A stretch of DNA of 64,000 nucleotides from a virus (lineage: Duplodnaviria; Heunggongvirae; Uroviricota; Caudoviricetes): IMG/VR virus record IMGVR_UViG_2609459826_000002; one strand, written 5' to 3'. Below the pieces are notes generated by a model. That model searched no databases and had not been told where the DNA came from. It was given only the letters and a program-made list of their open reading frames with translations. The position numbers and the translations under genes were made by a program. Below, piece after piece: positions 31,684 to 34,931 of this stretch (positions are counted from its first letter, which is position 1; each line of letters opens with the position of its first letter).

Positions 31684-31988
31684 TGACCACTTTTACCGAC
31701 AAAGAACTGATTAAAGAAATTAAAGAGCGTATCAGCAGCCTTGACGTGCGAGACGATATTGAGCGCCGTGCTTATGAAATCGCACTCCTATCTCTGGAAG
31801 TAGAACCAGATGAACGCGAAGCTTATGAATTATTCATGGAAAAGCGTTTCGGTGACTTAGTAGATCGTCGGAGAGCAAAAAACGGCGATAACGAATACAT
31901 GGCATGGGATATGACTCTCGGTTGGATCGTCTGGCAGCAACGAGCAGGTATCCATTTTTCAACAATGTCACAACAAGAGGTGAAATAA
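31683..31988 (+). CDS. Hypothetical prophage protein
   Basis: 101-aa ORF, ATGA-coupled to upstream gene. Confidence 0.35.
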   Translation: MTTFTDKELIKEIKERISSLDVRDDIERRAYEIALLSLEVEPDEREAYELFMEKRFGDLVDRRRAKNGDNEYMAWDMTLGWIVWQQRAGIHFSTMSQQEVK

Positions 31989-32338
31989 TGGAGCCATACA
32001 GCCTCACACTCGATGAGGCCTGTCATTTTCTCAAGATATCCAGACCGACTGCCATTAACTGGATACGCACAGGGCGTCTTCAGGCAACACGCAAAGATCC
32101 CACTAAGAATAAATCTCCTTACCTCACAACACGACAAGCCTGCATTGCGGCTCTTCAGTCTCCGCTGCATACTGTCCAGGTGAGCGCGGGTGATGGCATA
32201 ACAGAGGAAAGAAAATGTCACTCTTCCGCAGAGGTGAAATATGGTACGCCAGTTTCACATTGCCGAACGGTAAAAGATTTAAACAGTCTCTTGGAACAAA
32301 GGACAAAAGGCAGGCGACAGAACTCCATGACAAGCTAA
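31988..32338 (+). CDS. Excisionase-like HTH protein (start taken at [11 protein letters not shown]; 3' end uncertain, frame overlaps integrase start)
   Basis: [37 protein letters not shown] resembles Xis/AlpA-type HTH; directly upstream of integrase. Confidence 0.5.
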
Positions 32339-33378
32339 AGGCTGAAGCATGGCGGGTCAGCAAACTTGGTGAAATACCTGATATAACGTTCGAGGAAGCG
32401 TGTGTCAGGTGGCTTGAAGAGAAAGCACATAAAAAATCACTGGACGATGACAAAAGCCGGATCGGATTCTGGCTTCAACATTTCGCAGGAATGCAACTAA
32501 GAGACATTACTGAATCAAAAATTTATTCAGCAATGCAGAAAATGACGAACCGGCGTCATGAGGAAAACTGGAAACTCAGGGCAGAAGCATGCAGAAAAAA
32601 AGGGAAACCTGTTCCAGAATACACGCCAAAACCAGCGTCCGTTGCAACGAAGGCTACGCATCTTTCATTTATAAAGGCCCTACTAAGAGCCGCAGAGCGT
32701 GAATGGAAAATGCTGGATAAGGCACCAATTATTAAAGTGCCTCAACCAAAGAATAAACGGATCCGCTGGCTGGAGCCCCATGAAGCACAAAGGCTGATTG
32801 ATGAATGTCCGGAGCCATTAAAGTCTGTTGTTGAATTTGCACTGGCAACAGGCTTAAGACGCTCGAACATCATCAACCTTGAATGGCAACAAATAGATAT
32901 GCAGCGCCGGGTGGCATGGATAAACCCGGAAGAGAGTAAATCAAACCGCGCAATCGGCGTTGCGCTGAATGATACTGCATGTCGCGTTTTGAAAAAACAA
33001 ATCGGGAATCATCACCGTTGGGTATTTGTGTACAAGGAAAGCTGCACCAAACCAGACGGAACGAAAGCGCCAACAGTAAGGAAGATGCGGTATGACGCAA
33101 ACACAGCCTGGAAAGCGGCGCTGAGACGGGCTGGTATTGATGATTTCAGATTTCACGACTTGAGACACACCTGGGCAAGTTGGCTGGTTCAAGCCGGAGT
33201 CCCGTTGTCAGTGTTACAGGAAATGGGAGGCTGGGAGTCTATCGAAATGGTTCGTCGATATGCTCACCTTGCACCTAATCACCTTACCGAACACGCACGG
33301 CAAATAGACTCGATCCTGAACCCATCGGTCCCAAATTTGTCCCAGTCAAAAAATAAGGAAGGTACTAATGATGTGTAA
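32215..33378 (+). CDS. Tyrosine integrase (lambda-type, prophage 1)
   Basis: 387-aa ORF; N-terminal [14 protein letters not shown] arm-binding motif; C-terminal R..H..R...Y catalytic region (HDLRHTWAS...RYAHL). Confidence 0.9.
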
Positions 33379-33392
33379 CTTATTGATTTAAA

Positions 33393-33440
33393 TGGTGCCG
33401 ATAATAGGAGTCGAACCTACGACCTTCGCATTACGAATGC
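33393..33440 (-). other. 3' fragment (~48 nt) of tRNA-Thr(CGU): integrase-proximal att core
   Basis: Minus-strand sequence CGCATTCGTAATGCGAAGGTCGTAGGTTCGACTCCTATTATCGGCACCA contains anticodon loop with CGT, T-arm GGTTCGA and CCA end; no D-arm upstream. Confidence 0.75.
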
Positions 33441-33623
33441 GACGTTATTATATTTTTACCCCTTTAAAAACCTACTCTTAAAACAAGTAATTCATTATAA
33501 AACATTGTGTTATGAAAAACACCTGTTGATAAAAATTGACAGGTGTTGATGTTTATTCCCCCATTTTACTTACACCAGCAGTTACATTATGGTGATGTAA
33601 CATTTCTCATCTGGAGCCCCAAA

Positions 33624-34931
33624 ATGGCACTTCCAAGACAAAAACTCACCTTCGAGCGCATTCGAAAATTTGCTTTATCTGAAGGAAAAACCCAGGCATT
33701 TCTTTGGGATGCGGACGTAACTTCCCTGGCATGTCGGGCAACTCGCGGAACAAAAGCTTTTGTGTTCCAAAGCGTATATGCGGGAAAAACCCTTCGCATG
33801 ACCATTGGCAACATTAACGATTGGAGGATTGATGATGCCAGGGCCGAAGCCAGGCGGCTGCAAACATTAATCGATACTGGGATAGATCCGCGTATAGCTA
33901 AGGCAGAAAAAATTGCTGAAGCGGAATCACAGCAGGATGAATCTCGTAAAACGAAGGTAACCTTCACAAGCGCCTGGGAAGATTACCTTGAAGAATTGAG
34001 AACCGGAATCAGCGCAAAAACTAAACGCCCATATTCTACTCGATACATTGCCGATCACATTAACTTGTCCAGCCGTGGAGGGGAAAGTAAAAAAAGAGGC
34101 CGGGGCCCAACCTCGGCTGGACCATTGGCTAGCTTACTCGACCTACCGTTATCGGAACTAACACCAGAGAACATTGCCGCATGGCTAAGTACAGAGAGAC
34201 AAAATCGGCCTACCGTCACTGCTCATGCCTACCGGCTGTTGCGTGCATTTATCAAATGGGCTAATTACCAGAAAAAATATCAGGGAATAATCCATGGCGA
34301 TATTGCACAAGATCATAACGTGAGAAAAGTGGTTCCAGTATCAGCGAGTAAAGCGGGAGATTGCTTACAAAAAGAACAGTTAAAAATCTGGTTCAGTGCC
34401 GTACGTAGCCTCAATAATCCCATTGCATCGGCCTATCTCCAAGTACTTTTGCTCACCGGTGCACGGCGTGAAGAAATTGCGTCACTTCGGTGGTCTGACG
34501 TAGATTTCAAATGGTCAAGCATGAGGATTAAAGACAAGATCGAAGGCGAACGTATCATCCCTCTCACTCCTTATGTTTCTGAGCTGTTAAGTGCGCTAGC
34601 GCAATTCCCAAATTCTGACGTAAATAAGGAGGGTTGGGTTTTCAGAAGTAACAGCAAAAGTGGCAAAATTATTGAACCGCGTTCAGGACACAACAGAGCG
34701 TTAGCTCGAGCTGAGTTACCACATATCAGCCTTCACGGCTTACGCCGTAGTTTTGGCACTCTTGCTGAATGGGTTGAAGTGCCAACAGGTATTGTTGCTC
34801 AAATTATGGGACACAAACCAAGTGCACTGGCGGAAAAACACTACCGCCGTCGTCCGTTAGATCTGTTGCGCAAATGGCATGAAAAAATTGAGAGGTGGAT
34901 CTTACAGCAAGCAAATATTGTAAAAAAATAA
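33624..34931 (+). CDS. Tyrosine integrase (P4/CP4-like, island 2)
   Basis: 436-aa from MALPRQKLTFERIRKF; C-terminal HGLRRSF...catalytic region; different family from the first integrase. Confidence 0.85.
   Translation: MALPRQKLTFERIRKFALSEGKTQAFLWDADVTSLACRATRGTKAFVFQSVYAGKTLRMTIGNINDWRIDDARAEARRLQTLIDTGIDPRIAKAEKIAEAESQQDESRKTKVTFTSAWEDYLEELRTGISAKTKRPYSTRYIADHINLSSRGGESKKRGRGPTSAGPLASLLDLPLSELTPENIAAWLSTERQNRPTVTAHAYRLLRAFIKWANYQKKYQGIIHGDIAQDHNVRKVVPVSASKAGDCLQKEQLKIWFSAVRSLNNPIASAYLQVLLLTGARREEIASLRWSDVDFKWSSMRIKDKIEGERIIPLTPYVSELLSALAQFPNSDVNKEGWVFRSNSKSGKIIEPRSGHNRALARAELPHISLHGLRRSFGTLAEWVEVPTGIVAQIMGHKPSALAEKHYRRRPLDLLRKWHEKIERWILQQANIVKK

Follow-up and report, generated by a model that had tools for sequence, protein, structure and literature searches.

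Serotype-converting Sf phages integrate at the tRNA gene thrW. This gene is among the most-used tRNA gene (tDNA) targets in Escherichia coli and is an island hotspot (PMC7545054), and tandem integration at thrW has been shown experimentally for the phages SfI and SfX (Sun et al. 2011, PMC3306764). The Islander survey catalogued 125 tandem arrays at tDNAs and lists a class of attachment (att) sites centred on the anticodon (PMC4383910). The origin of such arrays has been traced to regeneration of the core at both ends of an inserted element, with a second element taking either copy (PMC7192596). Here we describe a junction between two elements in a stretch of 64,000 nucleotides (nt) from a caudovirus record (IMG/VR IMGVR_UViG_2609459826_000002), referred to below as the window. 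An SfV-like prophage on the left and an island of the CP4-6 family on the right meet at a single 49-nt copy of the 3' half of thrW (33393-33441, minus strand). As judged from sequence comparison, the two are very probably unrelated integrative elements that inserted successively at the 3' half of thrW in an E. coli-like chromosome and now stand in tandem.

The match of the fragment to thrW is far beyond chance. The minus strand of 33393-33441 (plus-strand letters TGGTGCCGATAATAGGAGTCGAACCTACGACCTTCGCATTACGAATGCG) is identical at 49 of 49 positions to positions 28-76 of thrW of E. coli K-12, the gene of tRNA-Thr(CGU), and a 50-nt pattern gave a chance match in none of 100 shuffles. The fragment begins within the 5' strand of the anticodon stem, of which it has 4 of 5 nt, and continues through the CGU anticodon loop, the variable loop and the T-arm to the 3' acceptor strand and CCA; it lacks the D-arm and the 5' acceptor strand. 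The initial annotation had described a copy of the 3' end of tRNA-Thr(CGU) with anticodon loop, T-arm and CCA but without the D-arm; this composition stands and the alignment to thrW bears out the tRNA identity, while the length is corrected from 48 to 49 nt. The homologous intact gene in the genome of MB52 is also called tRNA-Thr (cgt) by ARAGORN. In the window as a whole ARAGORN reports no tRNA, and Rfam gives a partial tRNA match at the fragment that is barely over threshold (29.7 vs 29 bits); the comparison with thrW explains this tRNA fragment skipped by tRNA finders. The Rfam match reaches 33460, and past nt 49 of the fragment the agreement with thrW is 7 of 27 positions, which is the chance level, so that a larger tRNA remnant is ruled out. 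Searches of the window with the 50-nt pattern (≤3 mismatches) and with k-mers as short as 12 nt, on either strand, gave no further copy of the core, and the outer att sites therefore cannot be shown within it.

The sequence left of the fragment carries an integration module of the P22/SfV type. The excisionase gene xis (31988-32338, plus strand, 116 aa, Pfam HTH_17) lies under the annotated excisionase of SfIV, SfV and SfI (97-99.7% nucleotide identity), and its 3' end runs into the beginning of int (32215-33378, plus strand). The latter is an intact open reading frame encoding a complete P22/SfV-type tyrosine integrase of 387 aa, whose match to PF00589 (164 bits) spans profile positions 1-171 of 172. 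As in the Sf phages, int is transcribed towards the core and ends 14 bp from it. This short phage arm (33379-33392), identical to 1008S13 and ECONIH4 and with one mismatch to the attP (phage attachment site) of SfI, had been given as 15 bp in the initial annotation, which otherwise placed the xis-int pair correctly. Over the whole module from xis through the attP core (31988-33438), nucleotide identity is 99.7% to SfIV, 99.2% to SfV, 98.8% to SfII and 97.4% to SfI, falling to 80.7% for P22 and ∼81% for the P22-group phages. Each of the phage matches breaks off at 33438, 46 nt into the tRNA copy. The SfI record annotates these 46 nt (33393-33438 in the window) as its attP core and places gtrA-gtrB-gtrI on the opposite arm. 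The resemblance to the Sf phages extends to the thrW target and, for SfV, to the head, tail and early genes. In a free Sf phage, however, the arm past the core is that of gtrA-gtrB-gtr(type), whereas in the window it is island DNA, because the window holds an integrated junction; moreover, SfV covers only 65% of the 25-kb prophage stretch tested, at 96.9% identity.

The sequence right of the fragment begins with an island arm (33442-33548) that matches MB52 without a difference and resembles ECONIH4 and the attR (right-hand attachment site) arm of K-12 CP4-6. This arm is the region upstream of an intact, intF-like open reading frame (33549-34931, plus strand) encoding a P4-type tyrosine integrase (89% amino acid identity to K-12 IntF over 460 aa), with PF13356 (Arm-DNA-bind_3) and PF00589 (Phage_integrase) in the usual P4-type architecture. 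BLASTP detects no similarity between this protein and the phage Int (E=1.7), in agreement with the initial proposal of a second, P4-type integrase unrelated to the first. As in K-12 CP4-6, the gene is tRNA-distal in its element and lies divergently ∼110 bp from a 49-nt thrW repeat that starts at position 28 (107 bp in the window, 109 bp in K-12). The reading frame is open from GTG 33543 and has in-frame ATGs at 33549, equivalent to the K-12 IntF start and 107 bp past the fragment, and at 33624, 182 bp past it and thus in keeping with the 180 bp first reported. A perfect 9-bp inverted repeat, AACACCTGT-N12-ACAGGTGTT (33518-33547), overlaps the upstream candidate starts at 33543, 33546 and 33549. 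The repeat is possibly an operator or terminator, and it argues for ATG 33624 as the true start. The candidate view of the P4-type integrase gene as a phage gene is ruled out by K-12, where the island exists without the phage.

The junction between the two elements is defined by an alignment of seven sequences, all of which have the 46-nt core unchanged. In the window, the 33 nt to the left of the core are the phage arm found in SfI attP (one mismatch), 1008S13 and ECONIH4. From core nt 47 onwards the sequence is identical to the MB52 island arm, and the arms of ECONIH4 and K-12 CP4-6 are similar to it. The core is the exact point at which phage sequence gives way to island sequence in the flanks, and the other arm of SfI attP recurs in ECONIH4, where it adjoins a 46-nt copy on the far side of the prophage. 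This alignment identifies the one core copy as a hybrid, with the int-side arm of the phage on its left and the intF-side arm of the island on its right. From the extent of thrW identity, the end of the phage matches at 33438 and the start of the K-12 CP4-6 annotation at thrW position 28, 33393-33441 is both the phage att next to int and the island att next to intF (equivalent to K-12 attR). The two integrases adjoin one core because the phage int is tRNA-proximal in its element and intF is tRNA-distal in its own; the two genes are co-oriented and ∼170-250 bp apart. The boundary is thereby set at single-nucleotide resolution: the prophage ends at 33392/33438 and the island starts at 33439/33442.

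The sequences beside the core show some further similarity. In the alignment, arm similarity runs ∼20 nt past the CCA end (33372-33392). The motif GTAAC-N3-TTGATTT(T/A)AA by the core is common to the phage arm, the host flank of K-12 and an island arm, but the arm of the MB52 satellite lacks it.

Each of the two elements is also found alone at thrW. In E. coli 1008S13 the phage occupies the site by itself in the arrangement int-> <-thrW <-proA, with thrW intact. In K-12 the island is alone, in the order proA-thrW-[CP4-6 ... intF]-49-nt repeat, and intF is transcribed inward, starting 109 bp from the second copy of thrW 28-76; when flipped, this arrangement gives the order of minus-strand fragment and plus-strand intF seen in the window. 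The 49-nt core itself is widespread, occurring at 7587 places in 5017 genomes with 1-4 copies per genome; of the 5426 complete E. coli genomes searched, 7 contain the int-core-intF junction. In ECONIH4 the whole array is visible as three core copies on the same strand, namely the intact thrW by proA, the junction copy of 49 nt and a further one of 46 nt. This last copy lies 40 kb from the junction at the far end of the phage, ∼9.3 kb past the counterpart of the window gene at 1364-2443, and is followed by a degraded CP4-6-like segment. In Z142-6, a canonical CP4-6 lies between thrW and the 49-nt copy. The phage remnant beyond that copy is an IS1-truncated stub (phage protein, yfdT, xis remnant, int); since Z142-6 retains only this stub, the tandem junction can persist as a fossil. 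The closest island backbone is that of MB52 (99.4% identity at the junction, 94.7% over 12.7 kb), where a P4-like satellite (locus 1-5837; integrase, Icd-like protein, TOPRIM/DUF927 primase) takes the place of the phage by the 49-nt core. The island exceeds the window, and in MB52, ECONIH4, Z142-6 and K-12 its other end is marked by intact thrW by proA.

Tandem insertion is favored because each element is found alone at thrW as well as together with the other at the same junction elsewhere. Tandem accretion at one tRNA site, suggested initially to account for two integrases beside one att core, thus gains support from the hybrid arms of the junction, the solitary elements and the three-core array of ECONIH4. 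The arrangement resembles the SfI/SfX tandem (PMC3306764), in which a second element uses the att made by the first at thrW; those are related phages with the same integrase type, whereas the window pairs a phage with a P4-type island and their integrases are unrelated. Compared with the arrays catalogued by Islander and TIGER (PMC4383910, PMC7192596), which have regenerated tDNA, displaced fragments at the ends, integrases of their own and anticodon-centred att sites, there is no difference in kind, only the shared internal fragment lying within the window. Each member here has its own integrase, int (32215-33378) and the intF-like gene (33549-34931).

In the proposed mechanism, each tyrosine recombinase would join the attP of its element, carrying a 3' portion of the tRNA gene (46 nt in the phage, 49 nt in the island), to thrW or to a displaced copy of it. 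Both identity blocks start at the anticodon stem-loop, which places them in the anticodon-centred class of tDNA att sites, and hence one sequence could serve two unrelated enzymes. Strand exchange takes place in the anticodon-loop region in this class, and by analogy would do so within 33393-33441. Every insertion regenerates the core at both ends, so that a later element may use either copy; with the island tRNA-proximal and the phage distal, the two integrase genes meet at the middle core. The array predicted in the orientation of the window is host, 46-nt core (off the left end), prophage with xis and int reading rightwards, 49-nt core, intF reading rightwards, island, intact thrW on the minus strand and proA (the last two off the right end). 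The distal core (TGGTGCC...ACGAAT) would be followed by the gtr-side arm of the phage, TATAAGAATCC, and is expected roughly 9-10 kb left of position 1. Excision of the phage would leave the 49-nt att of the island intact, and excision of the island would rebuild thrW by the phage int, as in 1008S13. The outer att sites are predictions for this genome, as are the activity of each integrase and the separate excision of the two elements.

Some observations weigh against tandem insertion. The window holds a single core copy, and the outer ends of both elements are predicted from relatives; in addition, the exact 90-nt phage-core-island junction was not found in the species-representative genomes. 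A relaxed junction pattern, searched in the same genomes, gave only two E. coli loci, both of which BLAST showed to have a K-12-like core plus intF and to lack the phage int. The lack of an intact tRNA or a second core copy in the window, together with the marginal Rfam score, would also suit a tRNA-like stretch that arose by decay of a tRNA gene, by chance or by an unrelated rearrangement, with the integrases neighbours by accident. This reading is highly improbable and already contradicted, as the fragment is identical to thrW over all 49 nt, its boundaries match the 46-nt attP core of SfI and the start of the K-12 CP4-6 repeat (thrW position 28) to the nucleotide, and the flanks change from phage arm to island arm precisely at the core. 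Nor is it at all probable that phage and island form one composite mobile element, moving jointly with two integrases on one att. The co-orientation and closeness of the integrase genes could be read this way, and co-mobile tandems of phage and integrative and conjugative element have been described in Streptococcus (PMC13651849). Each part is, however, found alone at thrW in other genomes, MB52 pairs the same island with a different neighbour, the P4-like satellite, and in Z142-6 and ECONIH4 the island variants that adjoin the phage int are different ones. Joint excision would also be unlikely, since each outer site bears the arm of one element only, so that neither integrase would see a canonical attL/attR pair (left and right attachment sites) for it.

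A regulatory or physical coupling of phage and island at the hybrid att, proposed because the phage xis-int and intF are co-oriented and close together, is highly unlikely. Under such coupling, antiterminated early transcription at prophage induction would cross the hybrid att into intF, so that island excision would accompany phage induction; alternatively, phage particles would pick up the intF end of the island through imprecise phage excision. Between int and intF lie two terminator-like hairpins (33426-33442 and 33518-33547), which argue against simple read-through, though antitermination might still carry transcription past them.

Within the successive-insertion explanation, the order of events is close to evenly balanced. 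Either the island came first and the phage entered its 49-nt fragment as a secondary attB (bacterial attachment site), or the phage came first and the island then entered the regenerated thrW, pushing the phage outward. Reasoning from 1008S13, MB52 and the junction alignment, both orders yield the same final structure. The core copies are all identical, with zero polymorphism to separate the two orders, and for this reason the order is not recoverable from the sequence. Prior insertion of the common island is slightly more likely: thousands of genomes have partial matches running from the core through intF, compared with 24 that have at least 80% of the phage stretch, the distal copy in MB52 has been used by another element, and SfI was found experimentally to integrate at the att site of a resident SfX (PMC3306764).

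The rest of the left side (1..33392) is an SfV-like myovirus prophage, identified by genome matches and gene order, of which ∼33 kb lie in the window. It has an HK97-type head, a Mu-type tail and a lambdoid early region. The left end of the window falls in its baseplate genes, so that the tail-fibre genes and distal att lie outside. Prophages in 24 complete E. coli genomes are 97-98% identical to it over 81-92% of 25 kb, and its gene order agrees with the annotated prophages of 1008S13 and ECONIH4. A gene pair at 20185-22574 (plus strand, the opposite strand inside the prophage) encodes a NA37/YejK-like nucleoid-associated protein (388 aa) and an overlapping 408-aa protein, the latter with no Pfam or PADLOC matches. 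The pair sits between the methylase/lysis genes and a Q-like antiterminator, is also present in the 1008S13 prophage, and looks like a moron.

Beyond the intF-like gene, the island keeps the gene order of K-12 CP4-6 before diverging in its cargo. A hypothetical protein with no Pfam matches occupies the yagN position (35054-35503, plus strand; same gene order as in MB52 and K-12/Z142-6). It is followed by an AlpA/YkgV-like small helix-turn-helix protein (35500-35721, plus strand, Pfam HTH_17) in the position of ykgV in CP4-6, a candidate directionality factor or regulator of the island. The next member of the shared order is a YagK/YfjJ-family protein (37084-37704, plus strand; Pfam YagK_YfjJ_C, 177 bits), whose gene is accompanied by a regulator gene and lies ahead of a type I restriction-modification cluster (38307-45774, minus strand). 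By Pfam, the cluster consists of hsdR (38307-41438), a DUF4268 protein (41438-42625), hsdS (42618-44036) and hsdM (44023-45774), all on the minus strand. A separate island with AlpA, a YfjJ-like protein and type I restriction-modification had been recognized from the outset, and these assignments agree with it. The DUF4268 protein between hsdR and hsdS carries a weak PD-(D/E)XK signal and matches the PADLOC candidate PDC-S11 (577 bits); it is the sole PADLOC match among the unannotated island genes and the prophage gene pair.

Whereas the cargo of K-12 CP4-6 is different, the island in the window carries, besides restriction-modification genes, raf and scr clusters and an IS3 element that a group II intron interrupts. 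Further cargo identified by Pfam and Rfam (46378-64000; IS1, raf, IS3 with intron, scr) continues beyond the right end of the window, in blocks that are 99% identical to matches on E. coli chromosomes and plasmids. The raf-like cluster (47049-54590) encodes a LacI-type regulator, an alpha-galactosidase, a LacY-type permease, a glycoside hydrolase family 32 (GH32) hydrolase and a LamB-type porin. The IS3-family element split by the group II intron (55955-58684, plus strand) comprises an ALIL frameshift pseudoknot (55955-56071) and an HTH_21 open reading frame (56000-56479), while the intron contributes a reverse transcriptase/maturase (57071-58594) and an Rfam intron domain (58598-58684). The scr-like regulon (59028-63950) encodes a LacI-type regulator, a GH32 sucrose-6-phosphate hydrolase, a phosphotransferase system (PTS) IIBC component and a LamB-type porin. 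The raf-like and scr-like clusters are bracketed by IS1 and IS3, and the same scr/intron block is found inside the thrW island of ECONIH4.

The phage-island tandem at thrW is real but ordinary; its biology is already known, and both modules are near-identical to described elements. The value of the arrangement lies mainly in annotation, as it predicts where the intact thrW and a third core copy must lie. The segment of thrW from anticodon to CCA is shared by at least three unrelated types of element, namely the SfV/P22-type phages, the CP4-6-type islands and the P4-like satellite of MB52.

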